This document shows positions 15,328 through 22,365 of a stretch of DNA of 32,000 nt, piece after piece. This DNA is from Bacillus subtilis subsp. subtilis str. 168 (GTDB lineage: Bacteria; Bacillota; Bacilli; Bacillales; Bacillaceae). The stretch lies in the NCBI RefSeq assembly GCF_000009045.1, contig NC_000964.3, positions 4,080,001-4,112,000 of the forward strand, given 5' to 3'. Below the pieces are notes generated by a model. It was not told where the DNA came from and made no database searches. It saw only the letters and a program-made list of their open reading frames with translations. Within the stretch, counting starts at the first letter, position 1; each line of letters starts with the position of its first letter. Position numbers and translations under genes: made by a program.

Positions 15328-15358
15328 AAAAGGCGCTTCCTTAGAGGAGCGCCTTTTA
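15328..15358. terminator. Bidirectional terminator between convergent aldX and yxbD
   Basis: The hairpin is AAAGGCGCTTCC-TTAG-AGGAGCGCCTTTT. Confidence 0.75.
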
Positions 15359-15835
15359 TTGTAACTCCTTGACCAAAAGCAATTCATCACGGATAGGTAT
15401 TTTATTATCTGCCAGTAAAGGAATTTCGGGCTTCATCTTTCTGGCCGTCTCGACTGCATTCACAAATAGTCGATCCAACCGGTACCCTCTCTTCTGATAA
15501 AACGCTAATGCATGAATATTATCATTGGTTGTGATCAGTTTTATTTGTTTGATATTTCTCTCTCTGCATGCTTCCTCGGCTTTCTCTAGCAGAGCTGTTC
15601 CGATCCCTTTATTCTCAATGACACTATCCAGCGAAATGATTTCACAGGCATCTTCTTCAAATATGTATGTAATAAGGCCAACAATCTGGTTATCATCGTT
15701 GAGCATTCCATAACCATCTAATTCATCGCAGTTATAAATACCGCTAGAAATAACCATTTGCGGACTGCCCCAGTGTTTTTGAAAAAACGCGGAAACAAGA
15801 TCTTTAGGTACCTGGCATGTCGGAATAATATTCAT
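15356..15835 (-). CDS. yxbD: YxbD, GNAT-family N-acetyltransferase
   Basis: This 159-aa ORF has the GNAT motif A (ENKGIGTALLEKAE) and the C-terminal AFYQKRGY motif, with SD AAAGGAGGAA upstream. No terminator separates it from the upstream yxbC. Confidence 0.9.
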   Translation of the reverse strand: MNIIPTCQVPKDLVSAFFQKHWGSPQMVISSGIYNCDELDGYGMLNDDNQIVGLITYIFEEDACEIISLDSVIENKGIGTALLEKAEEACRERNIKQIKLITTNDNIHALAFYQKRGYRLDRLFVNAVETARKMKPEIPLLADNKIPIRDELLLVKELQ

Positions 15836-15914: not shown

Positions 15915-16907
15915 CTAGAACTTATAACTTGTCAAAAGCTGTCTGAATACCAATTGCGTGGATTGATAAGGATCAAAATCTGAATCCTGAGATTGGAAGA
16001 TTTGCTCTGGGGTCAATGTCTCTGCGTTCTCTGATAACGTTTGAATCAGACTTTCCAAATATCCATTTAACTCTGATTTGGACGATTCATGTAGGGATTG
16101 ATGATTTACAGCGAGTTCTCTAAATCTGTTATCACTGATTAATTTTTTTCGAAGAGCTGCTAGCATCAAGTCAAGCCATGCAGGCTGGCCAAATGTAATA
16201 TTTAAAGCTAACGTTGCTTGATCAGATTTGGTGGAGTGCCATAAACCTCTTGGCAAATACAGCATGGTTCCCGGTGTTAAATTAACGATTTCTGCATCTG
16301 GCAGATCCTCTTTTGGCGGATCTCCTTTCCAATATGACTGTAAATCATCAGGATAGTAAGGAGCCTCTGATAAATCATAGTGCTGCATTGGATTGCTCAC
16401 ATTTTCATTCTTGGCAAGCTTCCATGTTTTCTCACCTTGAATTTGAAAAATCAAGTTGGTGTAGGCGTCAAAATGGGCTTTGAATCCCCCGCCATTTTTC
16501 GCCGCGTAAACAATGGCTTTGGAAGAAGTACCCGCAGGCAGTCTTAATTCCGCTTTGAGTTTTTCTATCCACCTTCTGACTTGGGGAATAAATAGGTCGG
16601 TGAAATCAAACTCTAATGCAGCCCCTTTTTCATACCACTCTAAAGCCTCTGCAGGTGACACAAGAAATCTGTCTGTGATCCCTTCAGATTCTTCAATCAC
16701 AGCATCACCAACGACCATGACTGGATTATTGTAGATAGCCAATACGTTTTCTAGCGTTCTAACCTTTTCAAACCCCGGTATGCTTGTAAATCTCTCCACT
16801 TCTCCTCTGGCTACCAAAGGTTTTACAGGCCAATATTCTTCTAAAAACTCACTCATCGTTACAGGACTGATGATAGACTCCAAAACCGATTCGGTTACAG
16901 CACTCAT
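15915..16907 (-). CDS. yxbC: YxbC, JmjC/cupin-4-type Fe(II)/2-oxoglutarate oxygenase
   Basis: The track ORF is trimmed to the ATG at 16907 (MSAVTESVLES...), after GGGAGGGA. It has the HxD...H facial triad (FKAHFDAY ... LYLPRGLWHST) typical of JmjC/ribosomal-oxygenase-like cupins. The length is 330 aa. Confidence 0.88.
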   Translation of the reverse strand: MSAVTESVLESIISPVTMSEFLEEYWPVKPLVARGEVERFTSIPGFEKVRTLENVLAIYNNPVMVVGDAVIEESEGITDRFLVSPAEALEWYEKGAALEFDFTDLFIPQVRRWIEKLKAELRLPAGTSSKAIVYAAKNGGGFKAHFDAYTNLIFQIQGEKTWKLAKNENVSNPMQHYDLSEAPYYPDDLQSYWKGDPPKEDLPDAEIVNLTPGTMLYLPRGLWHSTKSDQATLALNITFGQPAWLDLMLAALRKKLISDNRFRELAVNHQSLHESSKSELNGYLESLIQTLSENAETLTPEQIFQSQDSDFDPYQSTQLVFRQLLTSYKF

Positions 16908-16971
16908 ATTATCCCTCCCAAAAAAAGTAACTTCACCACAAAGATATAACATTTTTTTCTAAAAGTAAATA

Positions 16972-17000
16972 TTGACAGAATTATCAGAGGATTATAATAT
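16972..17000 (+). promoter_or_regulatory. Sigma-A promoter of the peptide/yxbB-asnH operon
   Basis: A perfect TTGACA lies at 16972-16977. The -10 is either TATAAT at 16993-16998 (15-nt spacer) or TAATAT at 16995-17000 (17-nt spacer). The predicted transcription start is about 17005-17008. Confidence 0.6.
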
Positions 17001-17048
17001 TTAGTTGTGCGTGATAGCCTATTTTTTTACAAGGAAGGAGGGAAAAGG

Positions 17049-17117
17049 ATGAAAAAGGCTTATAAGAAACCTCGTCTTTTTGAACTGCGCCGTGCTGTAG
17101 CAGCTGGCGGCCATTAA
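17049..17117 (+). CDS. 22-aa peptide MKKAYKKPRLFELRRAVAAGGH, copy 1 (candidate RiPP/scaffold precursor)
   Basis: The ATG lies 6 nt after GGAGGG and the stop is TAA. It is too short for the ORF track. It is identical at the peptide level to copies 2 and 3, and differs from copy 2 only at wobble positions. Confidence 0.7.
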   Translation: MKKAYKKPRLFELRRAVAAGGH

Positions 17118-17166
17118 TCTCATATAGCATTTGACATCTAGTACTCTATTTTAGGAGGGATGCTCA

Positions 17167-17235
17167 ATGAAAAAAGCTTATAAGAAACCTCGCCTTTTTG
17201 AACTGCGCCGTGCTGTAGCAGCTGGCGGCCATTAA
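17167..17235 (+). CDS. 22-aa peptide MKKAYKKPRLFELRRAVAAGGH, copy 2
   Basis: The ATG lies 8 nt after AGGAGG (17153-17158) and the stop is TAA. The peptide is the same as copy 1. Confidence 0.7.
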   Translation: MKKAYKKPRLFELRRAVAAGGH

Positions 17236-17284
17236 TCTCATATAGCATTTGACATCTAGTACTCTATTTTAGGAGGGATGCTCA

Positions 17285-17353
17285 ATGAAAAAAGCTTATA
17301 AGAAACCTCGCCTTTTTGAATTGCGCCGCGCTGTAGCAGCTGGCGGTCATTAA
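17285..17353 (+). CDS. 22-aa peptide MKKAYKKPRLFELRRAVAAGGH, copy 3
   Basis: The ATG lies 8 nt after AGGAGG (17271-17276) and the stop is TAA. It has three synonymous changes relative to copy 2 (CTG>TTG, CGT>CGC, GGC>GGT). Confidence 0.7.
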   Translation: MKKAYKKPRLFELRRAVAAGGH

Positions 17354-17415
17354 TCTTATCCAAAACGATTAACGTTTGAGGCTATCACGCCAACTTGATA
17401 AGGAGGATGCTGAAG

Positions 17416-18150
17416 ATGATTACGGCTGAAGAATGCAGAACGTACAAAGAATTTGTTGATCTTTACCAATCCTATCTTTACCCCTTGCTTGGCGCCAGAC
17501 TGTCCCGGATGTATTCCCCCAAAAACAAAGTCATTATCGATATGGGCACAGGTCCAGGTTATTTAAGCATTCAGTTGGCTAAAAGAACAAATGCGCACGT
17601 GCATGCTGTCGATATTAACCCGGCCATGCATGAAATCGCTCAAGAAGAAGCTAAAAAAAGCGGAGTAAGCAGCCTGATTTCATTTGATTTGGAAGATGTC
17701 CACCATTTATCTTACGCTGACCAATATGCTGACTTCATCGTCTCCTACTCTTGCCTGCATCATTGGGAAGACGTTGTTAAAGGACTTAAAGAGTGCTATA
17801 GAGTTCTGGCTCCGGGCGGAAAAATTGTCATTTTGGATACATTTAATCCCCAAGGAAGCCATTTAGAGATTATGCGAAAACAAATCAAAGAACCGGAATA
17901 CTTCAGGTTTGTAAGAGAGGCATTTGAAGAAAGTTATTCCTTTGAAGACATTCACCAGTTTGTTCAGGATGCCGGCATTCCCAATTATTCATTAGAAACC
18001 TTTCACTTTTTACCGGAGGATTTTATAGAAAGCTTAGATGAGCTGGAGGATGCTCCCCTGTGGGAACAAAATGATCAAAGTACTGATCATGAAATTGAGT
18101 CTGTCACATGGATGTTAACGATAGAAAAAGAAAAGGAAGGTGCATTGTAA
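17416..18150 (+). CDS. yxbB: YxbB, class I SAM-dependent methyltransferase
   Basis: The track ORF is trimmed to the ATG at 17416 ([13 protein letters not shown]...), 9 nt after AAGGAGG. It has SAM motif I ([12 protein letters not shown]) and the post-I/II motifs ([23 protein letters not shown]). The length is 244 aa. Confidence 0.9.
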
Positions 18151-18419
18151 TGATCAATGAATCAACTGTTTTATCCAAAAATCCAGAAATGCCATCAAGA
18201 AAATATTTGAAAAGCATTATTATAGAGCCGGGCATCACTTTAAATGAAATGGCATCAGATATTTATAACCATATCGACGGCAAGGTCAGCATACATGATA
18301 TTTGCTCAAAAATCGTCAATGAATATGATGTTGATTATCAAACCTGCTTAGAAGATTGTATGGAGCTGTTTGAGTTGCTTATTGATCATGAAGCAATCAA
18401 AGTTAAGCAGGGGGCATGA
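18150..18419 (+). CDS. yxbA: YxbA, PqqD-like small protein (candidate RiPP recognition element)
   Basis: The ATG overlaps the yxbB stop (TAATG) and SD AAGGAAGGTG lies upstream. The 89-aa sequence ...[58 protein letters not shown] follows the PqqD pattern: a beta-strand, then x-W/Y-xxxDG-x-xxxxxI, then helices. Confidence 0.85.
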
Positions 18420-18422
18420 GAA

Positions 18423-18905
18423 TTGGAAAAACAAAAAGTGCTTGCTTTACCAGACGATGTACATGAGCTGAGTACACACCGTTCTAAATCAATCGTAAAT
18501 TACATCATCACTCTGCTTGCCTTTGCCAAAAAACAAGGATTGACTCATCAAGATATTGTAAGCTGGATTCACGAGCAATATGAGGAAAGAGGATATTATG
18601 ATGAGTGGAGACACATTAACAGCCAACAACCAGTTGGATCATTTGTGGAACTCTTTATAAAAGGAAGACGTTTACTTTATGACAAAATTGAATTGTTTGA
18701 AACAGAAGATAAATATGTCGTAAATACCCACACTTGGTATGAAAAAGAACCTAGTGAGGCCTTTTTTTATTTTGAAATTGATCCCGAAGAATTTTCTGCG
18801 TACGCTTCCATTCTCGCAATCGAAAACGCAAAACGTCTCGGAATTAAAATCGATATTGTAAAAGAAACAGATGTAGAGACAGCTTATATCTATAAACATC
18901 AATAA
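18423..18905 (+). CDS. yxnB: YxnB, 160-aa acidic protein with no recognisable family
   Basis: The ORF starts at a TTG 3 nt after the yxbA stop, so the exact start is uncertain. The codon usage is coherent and the gene is tightly packed in the operon. Confidence 0.8.
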   Translation: MEKQKVLALPDDVHELSTHRSKSIVNYIITLLAFAKKQGLTHQDIVSWIHEQYEERGYYDEWRHINSQQPVGSFVELFIKGRRLLYDKIELFETEDKYVVNTHTWYEKEPSEAFFYFEIDPEEFSAYASILAIENAKRLGIKIDIVKETDVETAYIYKHQ

Positions 18906-18925: not shown

Positions 18926-21169
18926 ATGTGCGGGCTCGCGGGTATTATAAATCTGGCTGCTCCCCGTTCTCAGGAATGTACCTTTCATATATTGAAAGGC
19001 ATGGCAGATGCCATCAGCTATAGGGGACCGGATGATGAACAATATCATATTGATTCCAAAGTCGGCTTTGCATTTCGGCGATTGTCCATTCTTGACCTTG
19101 TAAATGGACAGCAGCCCTTTTTAAATGAGGATGGATCAATCGTCGTTATGGTAAATGGAGAAATTTATAACTATAAAGAACTGAAGGCTTCTTTACACAA
19201 TCATATGTTTAAAACGACATCTGATTGTGAAGTAATTGTTCATTTATATGAAGAAAAAGGGATTGGATTTGTAGACGACATCATCGGAATGTTTTCAATA
19301 GCCATTTGGGACAAAAATAAAAACAAAGTATTTTTAGTTCGTGACCGCTTTGGGATTAAACCGCTTTTTTACACAGAGCTAAAACACGAGCTTATATTTG
19401 CCTCTGAAATAAAATCCCTATTTTCTCATCCTCACTGTCCCCGCCAATTTAATTGGAAAGAAGCACTCTCAGACATTTGGCTAAGCGGGGAAGCAGCCAG
19501 TAATCATAAAGAAACCACTTCCTTTTTTGTAAACATCCAAAATCTCGATGCTGGCCATTATCTCGAAATTAATTTGACAACAAATGAACGAAAAACAGCA
19601 AGCTATTGGTCTTTACAGGATATTTTGCTCAGGCAAGGCTATCGTGAGAATCTCCATCCCGATGACCTGATTGAAGGATATAGAGAACTGCTGGCAGATT
19701 CAGTCCATAGATGTTTACAAAGCGACGTTGAAGTCGGGTTGTTTCTTAGCGGTGGCATTGATTCAGCTGCAGTCGCACATTTTGCTGCAGAAAAACAGGA
19801 TCTCCATACGTTTACAGTATTAAGCCAAAGTACATTTACAAATGAAGATGCAAAATATGCCCATTGGCTGGCTAAAGATTTACACCTTCCAAATCATCAG
19901 GTTCTCTATCAATTAGGGAACGATGAGTTATTACAACCAGAGTCATATAAACATTTGTTATGGATCTGTGAAACACCGTTTTGCGGACCGGAACAATTAT
20001 ATAAGTTTCATTTACATAAGTATGCCAAAGCGATAAGGCCAAACCTGAAAGTCATGCTGACCGGCCAGGGCAGCGACGAATTTAACGGCGGTTACAGCAC
20101 GACACTTTCACCAGCCGAGAACCCAAGTTGGGAAGGATTTATTGAATCGGTCAATACGATGGAGATGAACCGGCTGCATCGGCTGCAGGGAAATATCTTT
20201 AGAGTGTGGGAGGAGCATTTTGGACTTTCTCCTATAAACCTTTCTTATTTAAAGAGCAATGATTCCAGCCAAGCAGATCCTTGGCAATCGTATGTCCTGA
20301 CAAAATACCGTGATCTGCAAATGTATAATTGCTGGCATGAAGATCGGATCGCCGCGGCTAATCATATCGAAAACCGTGTACCGTTCTTGGACCATCGGCT
20401 TGTTGAATGGGTTTGCGGAATACCTGATGGACTCCGTAAAGACTTGTTATGGGATAAGTCGGTATTGCGAAAATCATTAACAAATGAGCTGCATACAAGC
20501 TATACCCACCGGCCAAAGGTTCCTTTTTTCTATGGTAAGGACGTGAGATATACACATAAAATGATGTTTCATCTTCTGAAGAAAAACAATTATCAGCTTA
20601 TAGAGGAGGCCTTCTCTCACAGCGATGCCTCCAGCATAATACAGGTTGAACACATTCATGCCATCATGACATATTTGGAGGATGATCCTGAGTTTACAAA
20701 TTTTGAATTTTTATTAAGACTGGTGAACATGGGACTTTTATCAAAAATGACTAAAGAAACCCCTTCTGTTCAATTAGACATAACCAGCCATTTAGAATCG
20801 ATAACAATAAAAGACTGGCACTCACAGGAAGGTGATATTGCCAGTCGTTTAAATATCTCAGCCAATAAGTGTGAAGGACAAGATATTTTGGCGCTAAACC
20901 CTGGCGTCACTCTGTTAAGGCCGGAAAGCGATAGTGAGCATTGCATCTACATTGCGGAAGAAGGATTTATTCAGTTTATTGTTTCGGAGGAAGACGTCGG
21001 AGCTTGGCTGCATATTCTCTGCGATATTAATGGAAAAGACACACTTCATACGATTTTAGACAGACATGGTGTCAGCCTTGAAGAAGTGGCCAAATATATT
21101 CAAGAAGCCATCGAACACAATATCATTTTGATCAAACAAAAAAATCTGCCAGAAGGAGCATATAGATGA
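18926..21169 (+). CDS. asnH: AsnH, asparagine synthetase (glutamine-hydrolysing)-type amidotransferase with a C-terminal extension of about 120 aa
   Basis: The track ORF is trimmed to the ATG at 18926, giving MCGLAG with the Ntn Cys2 nucleophile, after GGGAGGGAG. The PP-loop SGGIDS is at 19748-19765. The length is 747 aa, against about 615-630 aa for the housekeeping AsnB/AsnO. Confidence 0.94.
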   Translation: MCGLAGIINLAAPRSQECTFHILKGMADAISYRGPDDEQYHIDSKVGFAFRRLSILDLVNGQQPFLNEDGSIVVMVNGEIYNYKELKASLHNHMFKTTSDCEVIVHLYEEKGIGFVDDIIGMFSIAIWDKNKNKVFLVRDRFGIKPLFYTELKHELIFASEIKSLFSHPHCPRQFNWKEALSDIWLSGEAASNHKETTSFFVNIQNLDAGHYLEINLTTNERKTASYWSLQDILLRQGYRENLHPDDLIEGYRELLADSVHRCLQSDVEVGLFLSGGIDSAAVAHFAAEKQDLHTFTVLSQSTFTNEDAKYAHWLAKDLHLPNHQVLYQLGNDELLQPESYKHLLWICETPFCGPEQLYKFHLHKYAKAIRPNLKVMLTGQGSDEFNGGYSTTLSPAENPSWEGFIESVNTMEMNRLHRLQGNIFRVWEEHFGLSPINLSYLKSNDSSQADPWQSYVLTKYRDLQMYNCWHEDRIAAANHIENRVPFLDHRLVEWVCGIPDGLRKDLLWDKSVLRKSLTNELHTSYTHRPKVPFFYGKDVRYTHKMMFHLLKKNNYQLIEEAFSHSDASSIIQVEHIHAIMTYLEDDPEFTNFEFLLRLVNMGLLSKMTKETPSVQLDITSHLESITIKDWHSQEGDIASRLNISANKCEGQDILALNPGVTLLRPESDSEHCIYIAEEGFIQFIVSEEDVGAWLHILCDINGKDTLHTILDRHGVSLEEVAKYIQEAIEHNIILIKQKNLPEGAYR

Positions 21170-22365
21170 GCATCTTTTATTCGTTTTCCGCACTTAGGGG
21201 ATTAGCAATGGGGATTTTTTCGCCTATTTGGATTCTTTATCTGATATCTAAAGATTATGATTTCCTTCAGATTGGATTAATGGGAGCGGTACTTGAAATT
21301 GCTAAGCTTATATTTGAAGTTCCTTCCGGCGTTTTTGCTGATCGTTATGGAATTAAAATTTCAATTGCCAGTTCATTCTTTTTCTCCATCCTTACATGGG
21401 CCTTCTTCCCTTTTATCGATTCAGCTGCTATTTGCATACTGGCTATGATCATATGGGCTTTATCAGATTCCTTAATTTCCGGTTCTTTTGAAACTTGGAT
21501 GAGCCGTGTCGCAGGGGAAGATCGATTCGGCAAAGAAATGATGAAAAACACACAATTGCTAATCACTTTTTTAATTATTGGAAGTATTGCCAGCGGGTAT
21601 TTGTATTCATTAAATATCTATTTTCCTTTCCTGCTCGTTATGGTGATCTACTTATTACTATTTATTTGGATGTCTGTATTTATTAAAGTCCCTTCTGTTT
21701 CCGAAACAAATCATGGGGATCAGAACCAACATGATTCGATAAAGATTATCAAAGAAAGTTTAAAAATTATCTTTAACAAAAAAAGGGTTCTTTTAATCGT
21801 CATAGCCGGTTTCTTTACAGCCACAGCCTATGACACAATTTCCCGTTACTGGCAGCCTTTTTTGAGTGATTTAGGCTTTTCAGAAAAGTCACTGGGATAT
21901 ATTTTTGCCCTAGGAGGGTTTACCGCTCTCGTTCTTTTGACATTAACCATCAGGTTCGAAAAGAAGATCGAAAAAAATCCATATCTCGCTTTAACCTCAT
22001 TGGATTCCATGGGCATGGTCATGACTTTTCTATTGTCTAGAGCATTCAGGCCGCTGGGCATTCCATGTACAGCGTTTTTGCTTGCAATTGAAGATATTCA
22101 TCATCCGATCGTAACAAGTTACTTAAATAAGTTTTTCCCCGATTCATACAAGAACACACTTTTCTCGTTAAACTCAGGGGTAGGAGCAATTGGAGAAATT
22201 CTTTCCGGTGTCATTTTCGGCATCATTTCCGCAGCCTTTGGGCTCTCTGCCATGTTTGTTGTTGTAGCTGTATTTCTATTAATCCCTATTATCCTTTATA
22301 CGATAGTGCCTAAGATTAAAGACAATGATATGAAAGTTCAGATTGAAAAATCCCAGCAAGTGTAA
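21166..22365 (+). CDS. yxaM: YxaM, MFS transporter (candidate exporter)
   Basis: This 399-aa ORF has its ATG overlapping the asnH stop (ATGA). It has about 12 hydrophobic segments, with a central loop around aa 185-200. Confidence 0.9.
   Translation: MSIFYSFSALRGLAMGIFSPIWILYLISKDYDFLQIGLMGAVLEIAKLIFEVPSGVFADRYGIKISIASSFFFSILTWAFFPFIDSAAICILAMIIWALSDSLISGSFETWMSRVAGEDRFGKEMMKNTQLLITFLIIGSIASGYLYSLNIYFPFLLVMVIYLLLFIWMSVFIKVPSVSETNHGDQNQHDSIKIIKESLKIIFNKKRVLLIVIAGFFTATAYDTISRYWQPFLSDLGFSEKSLGYIFALGGFTALVLLTLTIRFEKKIEKNPYLALTSLDSMGMVMTFLLSRAFRPLGIPCTAFLLAIEDIHHPIVTSYLNKFFPDSYKNTLFSLNSGVGAIGEILSGVIFGIISAAFGLSAMFVVVAVFLLIPIILYTIVPKIKDNDMKVQIEKSQQV

Follow-up and report, generated by a model that had tools for sequence, protein, structure and literature searches.

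This report concerns a 32,000-nucleotide stretch from Bacillus subtilis subsp. subtilis str. 168 (the window: NC_000964.3, positions 4,080,001 to 4,112,000, forward strand), and within it the yxbC/yxbB-asnH region, in which a triplicated sequence lies 5' of the yxbB-asnH operon. Each repeat contains a small open reading frame (mini-ORF), and all three mini-ORFs encode the same 22-residue peptide, MKKAYKKPRLFELRRAVAAGGH. Very probably, these are paralogous genes for a precursor or scaffold peptide, the substrate for AsnH and its partner enzymes, and the region is an overlooked natural-product cluster. Read this way, the published "RNA-stabilising triplication" becomes three precursor genes, and the textbook "third asparagine synthetase," AsnH, becomes a probable peptide C-terminal amidotransferase.

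Three copies of one small gene

The mini-ORFs and their Shine-Dalgarno sequences (SD) are placed as follows:

17036..17117, + strand: putative precursor peptide gene copy 1 (SD 17036-17042, ORF 17049-17117)
17153..17235, + strand: putative precursor peptide gene copy 2 (SD 17153-17159, ORF 17167-17235)
17271..17353, + strand: putative precursor peptide gene copy 3 (SD 17271-17277, ORF 17285-17353)

Each mini-ORF consists of 22 codons plus TAA. The initial annotation, made from the sequence alone, had reported three ATG...TAA frames at 17049, 17167, and 17285, spaced 118 nt apart and encoding one 22-residue peptide; coordinates and translation both match. Tandem Repeats Finder gives a period of 118, with 2.6 copies and 97% matches. 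Exactly five nucleotides vary among the copies, all of them synonymous and all of them transitions: codons 3 (AAG/AAA), 9 (CGT/CGC), 13 (CTG/TTG), 15 (CGT/CGC), and 21 (GGC/GGT). Copy 1 alone has two of the changes, and copy 3 alone has the other three. The inter-ORF spacers, 17118-17166 and 17236-17284, are identical. A recount thus reproduces exactly what had been noted about the differences and the spacers. An SD does precede each ORF as well, but the distance from AGGAGGG to ATG is 6, 7, and 7 nt for copies 1, 2, and 3, rather than the 6-8 nt claimed.

How strong is this coding signal? The annotation had put the chance of five synonymous changes out of five at about 1 in 1000. That value holds if all substitutions are considered, since 25.4% of single-base changes in this ORF are synonymous (p ~1e-3). 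Among transitions only, the synonymous share is 35%, and p becomes ~5e-3. The within-window signal is real but modest: suggestive, but, because tandem copies evolve in concert, not decisive alone.

The peptide itself is basic and is served by a strong SD; it contains an Arg-Arg pair, a Gly-Gly pair, a His codon, and a YxxP motif (Y5-K-K-P8) near the amino terminus of its 22 residues. Neither a signal peptide nor a hydrophobic segment was found in it.

An extra ATG stands right behind the SD in each repeat spacer (AGGAGGGATGCTCAATG; 17160-17183 and 17278-17301), and starts an out-of-frame ORF of seven codons. As no nucleotide separates it from the SD, this ATG probably is not used.

A peptide family under purifying selection

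Related loci were reached through homologues of yxnB, an orphan gene of the operon, and through full-length AsnH homologues, and then through genomic context. A word-indexed yxnB search yielded two close clusters, and an exhaustive one yielded 48 representatives at 50% identity. Eleven loci encode a 22-23-residue peptide, either in one to three copies arranged in tandem or as the final part of a 66-residue precursor. The consensus is MKK.Y.KPR......V.AGGH, and the GGH end is invariant:

Window, B. subtilis: MKKAYKKPRLFELRRAVAAGGH, 3 copies
L001/L002, metagenome contigs with YxnB 56% identical: MKKAYKKPRLFELRRAVVAGGH, 3 copies
L003, Anoxybacillus mongoliensis: MKKEYKKPRAFELRRAVIAGGH, 2 copies
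L006, metagenome: MKKAYKKARMFELRRLVVDGGH, 2 copies
L009, Halobacillus trueperi: MKKAYKKPRVFELRRA(V/I)VAGGH, 3 copies
L011, Bacillus altitudinis: MKKVYKTPRLVEIRNVVVAGGH, 3 copies
L007, metagenome: MQKKKYVKAKVYRLRRAVMAGGH, 1 copy
L008, metagenome: MEAKKYVAPKMYRLRRAYAAGGH, 1 copy
L016, Rahnella aquatilis plasmid: MKKTYAKPRLVQIRRSVSAGGH, 1 copy
L004, metagenome, 65-265: 66-residue precursor, with a Gly-Gly-type leader (…ELTDKEMEVISGG) and then …LYRKPRLVAISSDLAVGGH, 1 copy

Two or three tandem precursor copies are present in six of the loci examined. The orthologues keep the YxxP motif, with Pro replaced by Ala in two, whereas Glu12 is not conserved across the family. In the L007 and Rahnella peptides, which contain neither Asp nor Glu, the C-terminus is the sole carboxylate. 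The L007 peptide gene is placed between the gene for an asparagine-synthetase (AS)-like enzyme and that for a recognition element of peptides that are made by the ribosome and modified after translation (RiPP recognition element, RRE). The L004 variant couples a Gly-Gly-type export leader to a YRKPRL…AVGGH module, which suggests that the whole modified peptide may be the secreted product in some organisms.

Divergence between loci follows the reading frame. Relative to the B. subtilis ORFs, those of L001 carry 9-13 synonymous codon changes and one non-synonymous change, and those of Anoxybacillus carry eight and three, respectively. dN/dS against B. subtilis is 0.01-0.17 (Nei-Gojobori), with dS ~1.2-2.0, so that synonymous sites are saturated. 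Across six loci, variable sites fall at codon positions 1, 2, and 3 in the numbers 8, 7, and 20, the third position varying in 20 of 21 codons. Paralogues inside one locus differ almost exclusively at synonymous sites. The start, the TAA stop, the 22-codon frame, and nearly the whole amino-acid sequence are kept in orthologues. The inter-ORF spacers, by contrast, differ between loci in sequence and length; those of L001, where the copy periods are 113 and 112 nt, are unrelated to their B. subtilis counterparts. None of the 21 copies examined has a frameshift or an internal stop, so that the coding claim withstands the refutation test set in the initial annotation.

These cross-species data make the within-window signal decisive. 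Comparison of the sequences indicates that a gene encodes the peptide and that purifying selection acts on it strongly, both between genera and between two phyla. The initial proposal of selection on the peptide, over and above any on an RNA element, therefore is upheld by the low dN/dS, the saturated synonymous sites, and the diverged spacers.

A genome scan with a three-sequence YxnB alignment returned Anoxybacillus only, not B. subtilis itself, and a metagenome scan with the degenerate pattern MKK.Y...GGH-TAA returned only L001 and, again, a B. subtilis contig.

Conservation of this kind bears directly on the idea that the triplication is an mRNA-stabilising RNA element, in which ribosomes on strong SDs shield the 5' region and the peptide is an inert by-product. 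Morinaga et al. in 2010 reportedly credited RNA stabilisation to the triplication (Microbiology 156:1632; known from the title and from citing papers, PMC9319509 and a bioRxiv preprint). Moreover, three consensus SDs lie near the 5' end, which is sequestered by a conserved stem (described below). However, saturated synonymous sites and replaced spacers around an unchanged amino-acid sequence are not what an inert peptide would show. Nor does an RNA element account for the lone copy that accompanies the same enzymes on a plasmid of a proteobacterium, for the L007 gene between the AS-like and RRE genes, or for the L004 fusion behind a Gly-Gly leader. Stabilisation is compatible with precursor genes and so is no alternative to them; an RNA element with an inert peptide is very improbable.

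The exact 22-mer proves to be on record for strain 168 in NCBI and UniRef (CAK9899883.1, CAL5236817.1, and UniRef100_A0AAT9J3U9), under the label "small expressed protein of unknown function." Orthologous peptides of other species were not found in the same look-up. The statement that this element had been discussed only as an RNA stabiliser is thus out of date. The coding claim itself was right but missed the peptide's role, for which gene context points to the substrate of a peptide-modifying cluster. A full-text literature search found no paper with the 22-mer sequence or linking asnH to a precursor peptide. Coding status is therefore already in databases; what appears to be new is the role assigned to the peptide, its family, and the bracketing stem.

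The probable modification cluster

The genes that surround the peptide array encode a plausible set of peptide-modifying functions:

15356..15835, - strand: yxbD, GNAT acetyltransferase, probable tailoring enzyme (Pfam Acetyltransf_1)
15915..16907, - strand: yxbC, JmjC/cupin Fe(II)/2-oxoglutarate oxygenase (Pfam JmjC_2 and Cupin_8)
17416..18150, + strand: yxbB, class I S-adenosylmethionine (SAM)-dependent methyltransferase (Pfam Methyltransf_11/25)
18150..18419, + strand: yxbA, stand-alone PqqD-family RRE (Pfam PqqD, PF05402, 1e-10)
18423..18905, + strand: yxnB, orphan protein (no Pfam or NCBIfam match)
18926..21169, + strand: asnH, asparagine-synthetase-like amidotransferase (Pfam, NCBIfam)
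21166..22365, + strand: yxaM, MFS transporter, presumed exporter (Pfam MFS_1, PF07690)

The yxbC gene is transcribed divergently from the peptide array, and its start presumably is at 16907, judging from a GGGAGGG SD. It matches PDB entries 1VRB and 7ZCC (the latter deposited as "Uncharacterized protein YxbC"), and among characterised proteins it is closest to MINA53 and NO66, both histidyl hydroxylases. A solved but function-less structure thereby gains a candidate substrate.

The same gene set spans Bacillota and Enterobacterales. An RRE and YxnB occur in every peptide locus covering those positions, an AS-like gene in every peptide locus whose contig extends to it, and a YxbA ortholog in every related locus covering its position. 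Most loci also have the methyltransferase, JmjC oxygenase, GNAT, and MFS pump, in varying gene order: a JmjC gene is present in eight of the nine related loci long enough to show one; a methyltransferase gene in eight of the nine covering that position; and an MFS gene in L003, L006, L009, L010, L011, and L016.

The alternative that this co-occurrence addresses is a stand-alone small protein (signal, toxin, or membrane-active peptide), unmodified, that merely shares a promoter with unrelated metabolic genes. The deposited label, "small expressed protein," would suit such a product, as would its basic character and strong SD, and RNPP-type peptide-sensing regulators adjoin the cluster in two genomes. 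Nevertheless, the RRE, YxnB, and AS-like enzyme stay together across Bacillota and Enterobacterales despite shuffled gene orders, and the peptide has neither a signal peptide nor a hydrophobic segment. An unmodified small protein is accordingly quite improbable, if less so than an inert by-product.

Plasmids of enterobacteria carry the full cluster, with IS26 at its flanks. Examples are Rahnella aquatilis plasmid CP042360.1, 37.9-44.2 kb (L016), and Cronobacter sakazakii pCsaCS09b (L017), in which the methyltransferase and JmjC genes appear split in the annotation. Clusters in Bacillota adjoin IS66 or integrase fragments (L003, 3606-4861; L001, 1478-1948). The plasmid location, the IS26 flanks, and these fragments together point to a horizontally mobile cluster.

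YxnB and its probable GNAT partner

YxnB, which matched no Pfam or NCBIfam family, accompanies all of the GGH-terminated peptide loci examined; in those from Bacillota and metagenomes, its gene comes directly after that for the RRE. The locus of a Streptomyces AsnH homologue, where the 22-mer ends in NVA, lacks YxnB. The AlphaFold2 model (pLDDT 92.8) has four helices on two beta-hairpins, for which a Foldseek search of the PDB gave designed proteins only (TM < 0.5), and the protein contains no cysteine. Termed "unique in databases" in a 2025 bioRxiv preprint, YxnB now gains both a family and a context.

Its longest homologues are informative. Nine of ten tested carry a fused C-terminal GNAT domain (P0006, P0007, P0013, P0014, P0018, P0023, P0027, P0041, and P0045; another cited example is L011, 4620-5609). 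YxbD in turn shares 52% identity with the GNAT of the Halobacillus cluster and 36-38% with those GNAT domains that are fused to YxnB homologues. Such a Rosetta-stone link implies that YxnB and YxbD probably act together. Given the fusions and the YxbD orthology, the divergent yxbD and yxbC genes therefore belong to the cluster.

YxnB also was considered as an FzmU-like nucleotidyltransferase. This candidate was rejected: hhalign found nothing against the neighbour of the Streptomyces RRE, and no PDB fold match was of that kind.

AsnH as a probable peptide amidotransferase

AsnH contains glutamine amidotransferase and Asn_synthase domains, and is annotated everywhere as "asparagine synthase (glutamine-hydrolyzing)." Indeed, it passes the TIGR01536 equivalog cut-off (361 bits versus 267). 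However, about 200 additional residues extend beyond the Asn_synthase domains at its carboxyl terminus. Approximately 120 homologues share this length of ~740 residues, with 38-59% identity over the full length. In an alignment of 40 of these ~740-residue proteins, from Bacillota, Actinomycetota, Pseudomonadota, and Chloroflexota (38-58% identity), the Ntn nucleophile Cys2, R52, N77, G78, D100, and the SGGxDS PP-loop are invariant in 40/40. Because every catalytic residue is kept, AsnH, as read from its sequence, is a competent adenylating, glutamine-dependent amidotransferase. The best PDB folds for its AlphaFold2 model (pLDDT 90.6) are the hydroxyamidotransferase TsnB9, E. coli AsnB, and human ASNS.

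The extra carboxyl-terminal segment resembles an RRE. Residues 654-737 are modelled as four strands followed by three helices, the RRE topology (AlphaFold2, pLDDT 83-93), and comparison of the AsnH C-terminal profile with the YxbA-family RRE profile gave a probability of 77% and an E value of 2e-5 (hhalign). With moderate confidence, then, the models make this an RRE-like, probable peptide-binding domain. A protein search with the C-terminal 228 residues gave no significant match, although the full-length query did give matches. Gene context and the extra domain both indicate a peptide substrate; the ~740-residue homologues therefore are likely misannotated systematically, across several phyla.

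An RRE next to an AS homologue recalls lasso-peptide clusters, which comprise a precursor, a B1 RRE, a B2 protease, and a C cyclase. The order of peptide, PqqD protein, small protein, Asn-synthase homologue, and transporter resembles A-B1-B2-C-D, and the peptide contains the lasso-like YxxPxL motif; as in lasso biosynthesis, a PqqD-type RRE would read YxxP(xL). But the B. subtilis cluster has no B2 protease, no cyclase-type enzyme, and no ring-forming core. YxnB, without cysteine and without a transglutaminase fold, is no B2. AsnH keeps the glutaminase Cys2, whereas lasso cyclases have no glutaminase function, and scores 190 bits against the lasso cyclase model NF033535 (cut-off 525), and YxbA falls below the lasso-specific NCBIfam cut-off (29.7 versus 80). 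A leader of lasso length would leave only one residue, there is no Thr at -2, the acceptor Asp/Glu expected at core position 7-9 is missing from several homologues, and no core begins with Gly, Ala, Ser, or Cys. The lasso reading was rejected, as B2, cyclase, and core-peptide tests all came out negative; its chance is close to nil.

Comparison with characterised pathways

By analogy, the closest characterised system is the late part of fosfazinomycin biosynthesis, with FzmA, FzmZ, and FzmT and the FzmA-like "cluster 58" (Cha et al., bioRxiv 2026, PMC13622209). According to that report, FzmA is AS-like with a fused C-terminal RRE, and attaches hydrazine to the carboxylate of the C-terminal Arg in FzmZ, a 22-mer; with glutamine, it transfers ammonia to form an amide (PMC13622209). 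FzmZ has an N-terminal YxxP motif, and the pathway encodes no dedicated protease (PMC13622209). The authors give the neighbours of the 89 FzmA relatives as discrete RREs (79%), nucleotidyltransferases (62%), AurF-like oxygenases (60%), and MFS pumps (54%), and assign every relative a 21/22-mer missed by RODEO (PMC13622209).

The B. subtilis cluster likewise has an AS-like enzyme, in which the glutaminase and adenylation sites are intact and the C-terminus is a fused, RRE-like domain; a separate PqqD-type RRE, an MFS pump, a SAM methyltransferase, and no dedicated protease; and a 21/22-residue peptide with N-terminal YxxP that gene finders miss. It differs in that its peptide ends in the invariant Gly-Gly-His, whereas FzmZ ends in Val-Arg, and in that it has no hydrazine or phosphonate genes but adds a JmjC oxygenase, YxnB, a GNAT, and tandem precursor genes. 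AsnH is 39-42% identical, over the full length, to Streptomyces and Kitasatospora homologues, its likeness to FzmA itself being by published description. A Streptomyces homologue has an adjacent 22-mer, MKKYIKPQVKKVSFGSVLSNVA. With the AS-like enzyme, fused RRE, discrete RRE, 22-mer with YxxP, and MFS pump all in place, the B. subtilis cluster is by analogy a candidate, not a proven member, of the FzmA group. B. subtilis asnH is not mentioned in the main text of PMC13622209 or of PMC13060819 (supplements aside).

Other AS-like enzymes turn the C-termini of peptides into amides or nitriles: PesC (nitrilobacillins), TsrC (thiostrepton), and ScdTA (PMC13060819). The shared chemistry, which for AsnH would be deduced by likeness, is ATP- and glutamine-dependent conversion of the C-terminal carboxylate of a ribosomal peptide. 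For PesC, an oxygenase must first hydroxylate a nearby residue, and its homologues are described there as confined to pes-type clusters (PMC13060819). Unlike AsnH, the PesC group works with MNIO and HExxH oxygenases and M16 peptidases, on longer precursors with an R(V/T)DN end.

A proposed pathway

How might the parts work together? The N-terminal half of the peptide (MKK.YxxP...) would be the handle, bound by the YxbA RRE and by the RRE-like C-terminal domain of AsnH. AsnH would adenylate the C-terminal carboxylate of His22 and swap in nitrogen from glutamine, yielding at least a C-terminal amide. This carboxylate is the presumed target because no other is conserved across the family, and the L007 and Rahnella peptides have no other at all. 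At or near the invariant Gly-Gly-His end, YxbC would hydroxylate, YxbB would methylate, and YxnB together with YxbD would acylate. YxaM would then export the product: either the modified peptide, or a small C-terminal fragment cut by housekeeping peptidases. Export of the whole modified peptide is favoured by the export-leader variant in L004; export of a small fragment, by the MFS pump and, by analogy, the fosfazinomycin precedent. Finally, the tandem copies, strong SDs, and a long-range stem sequestering the 5' end would raise precursor supply, and probably also explain the mRNA stabilisation earlier ascribed to the triplication.

Several points weigh against this pathway. Translation, binding, chemistry, and product are all deduced from sequence and models, and "small expressed protein" is a database label. 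The RRE call for the AsnH C-terminus comes from predicted topology and the 77% hhalign probability; Pfam calls no RRE there, giving only weak winged-helix and PaaA_N hits, and the Rahnella AsnH homologue is without the RRE-like domain. The asnH gene is said to complement an E. coli asparagine auxotroph (Yoshida et al., in 1999), and AsnH may keep some activity on free aspartate. The window contains no nucleotidyltransferase or AurF-like gene, both typical of FzmA relatives, and hhalign finds YxnB unrelated to the protein beside the RRE in Streptomyces. An MFS pump would be unusual as the exporter of a 22-mer. Because the family is rare (48 YxnB representatives at 50% identity, and few loci from the scans), sampling is thin.

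A bolder version goes further. Free Gly-Gly-His is a classical Cu(II)/Ni(II)-binding ATCUN motif, and this underlies the idea of a new product built on Gly-Gly-His: a hydroxylated, methylated His-amide or a GGH-amide fragment, acting as a metallophore or signal. YxnB would represent a novel type of tailoring or adaptor protein that acts alongside the GNAT, and the stem an RNA device that protects or excises the precursor segment, thereby setting the precursor-to-enzyme ratio. This full combination is speculative, with perhaps a small chance of being right.

The simpler proposal, that the mini-ORFs are precursor genes for AsnH and its partners, would add a distinct mobile branch (GGH terminus; JmjC, methyltransferase, and YxnB/GNAT) to the pathways that build on the C-termini of 21/22-mer scaffolds. 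B. subtilis is a genetically tractable host that allows direct tests of the product, of its role, and of its timing, at the onset of stationary phase.

RNA features of the leader

Three features frame the peptide array:

16972..17000, + strand: sigma-A-type promoter, TTGACA, 17 nt, TAATAT (sequence scan)
17009..17020, + strand: long-range stem 5' arm, GCGTGATAGCCT (minimum-free-energy fold, 12/12 inverted repeat)
17379..17390, + strand: long-range stem 3' arm, AGGCTATCACGC, just 5' of the yxbB SD

A TATAAT sequence at 16993-16998 overlaps the promoter -10 region. From the promoter at 16972-17000, transcription should start at ~17006-17008. The stem spans ~360 nt, encloses all three peptide genes, and forms the first paired bases of the fold. 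Bracketing stems also occur at other loci:

Window, 17009-17020/17379-17390: 12/12, shuffle p 0.027
L001, 3304-3316/3667-3679: 13/13, shuffle p 0.011
L003 Anoxybacillus, 6654-6668/6927-6941: 14/15 Watson-Crick, 15 bp with one G-U, shuffle p 0.0055
L011 B. altitudinis, 3256-3269/3610-3623: 14/14, shuffle p 0.0035
L009 Halobacillus, 5123-5132/5474-5483: 10 bp with one G-U, weaker, shuffle p 0.086
L006: weak, 10 bp, shuffle p 0.30

G-U pairs were permitted in the shuffles, but nearly all pairing in the observed stems is Watson-Crick. The six p values combine to ~1e-5 (Fisher's method, hand calculation). Position is conserved, but stem sequence is wholly different between loci; this is covariation.

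The stem is thus a candidate for the actual RNA stabiliser or a processing site. With the strong ribosome-binding sites of the three genes, it probably stabilises the mRNA. It would likely do so by protecting the 5' end or by defining a processing site, through which mRNA levels for precursor and enzymes become uncoupled. Stabilisation by a stem would fit the reported effect of the triplication, and is not in competition with it. Known 5'-proximal mRNA stabilisers in B. subtilis are ribosome-binding STAB-SD elements and 5'-terminal stems. Here, too, consensus SDs lie near the 5' end, and the stem starts a few nucleotides from the predicted transcription start. Unlike those elements, these SDs serve conserved genes, and the stem is long-range and encloses a whole gene array.

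Could the mini-ORFs instead be cis-regulatory leader peptides, sensing amino-acid or tRNA supply by attenuation or stalling? They do lie in a 5' leader, the Arg-Arg and Gly-Gly pairs and the His codon might serve such sensing, and the regulators are nutritional: CodY and AbrB are listed for YxbA (PMC11426337) and CodY binding at the operon is stated (PMC6200986). The leader, however, has no terminator or antiterminator before yxbB (0 terminator-like sites in 16850-17450), whole-region folding is no better than for shuffled sequence (z = -0.63), and Rfam matched no family in 16900-17500. Moreover, the whole peptide is conserved, including the RRE-type YxxP; where it lies with respect to the enzyme genes varies (L007); and the 66-residue variant has an export leader. 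A leader-peptide role is hence highly improbable.

Regulation

Papers on the operon describe it as stationary-phase or nutrient-regulated, of unknown function (PMC9319509, PMC6200986). Mutants lacking tmRNA (ssrA) are reported to be strongly affected in yxbB transcription and YxbA protein (PMC9319509, PMC11426337). Heavy translation of the three mini-ORFs may be linked to this effect.

Regulators with HTH_3 and RNPP_C domains adjoin the cluster in Halobacillus trueperi (L009, 2911-3879) and in Bacillus thuringiensis (L010, 7666-8559). RNPP-type regulators are the Rap/NprR/PlcR/PrgX family of peptide-sensing quorum regulators. Their location hints that the product, or its regulation, may be tied to peptide signalling.

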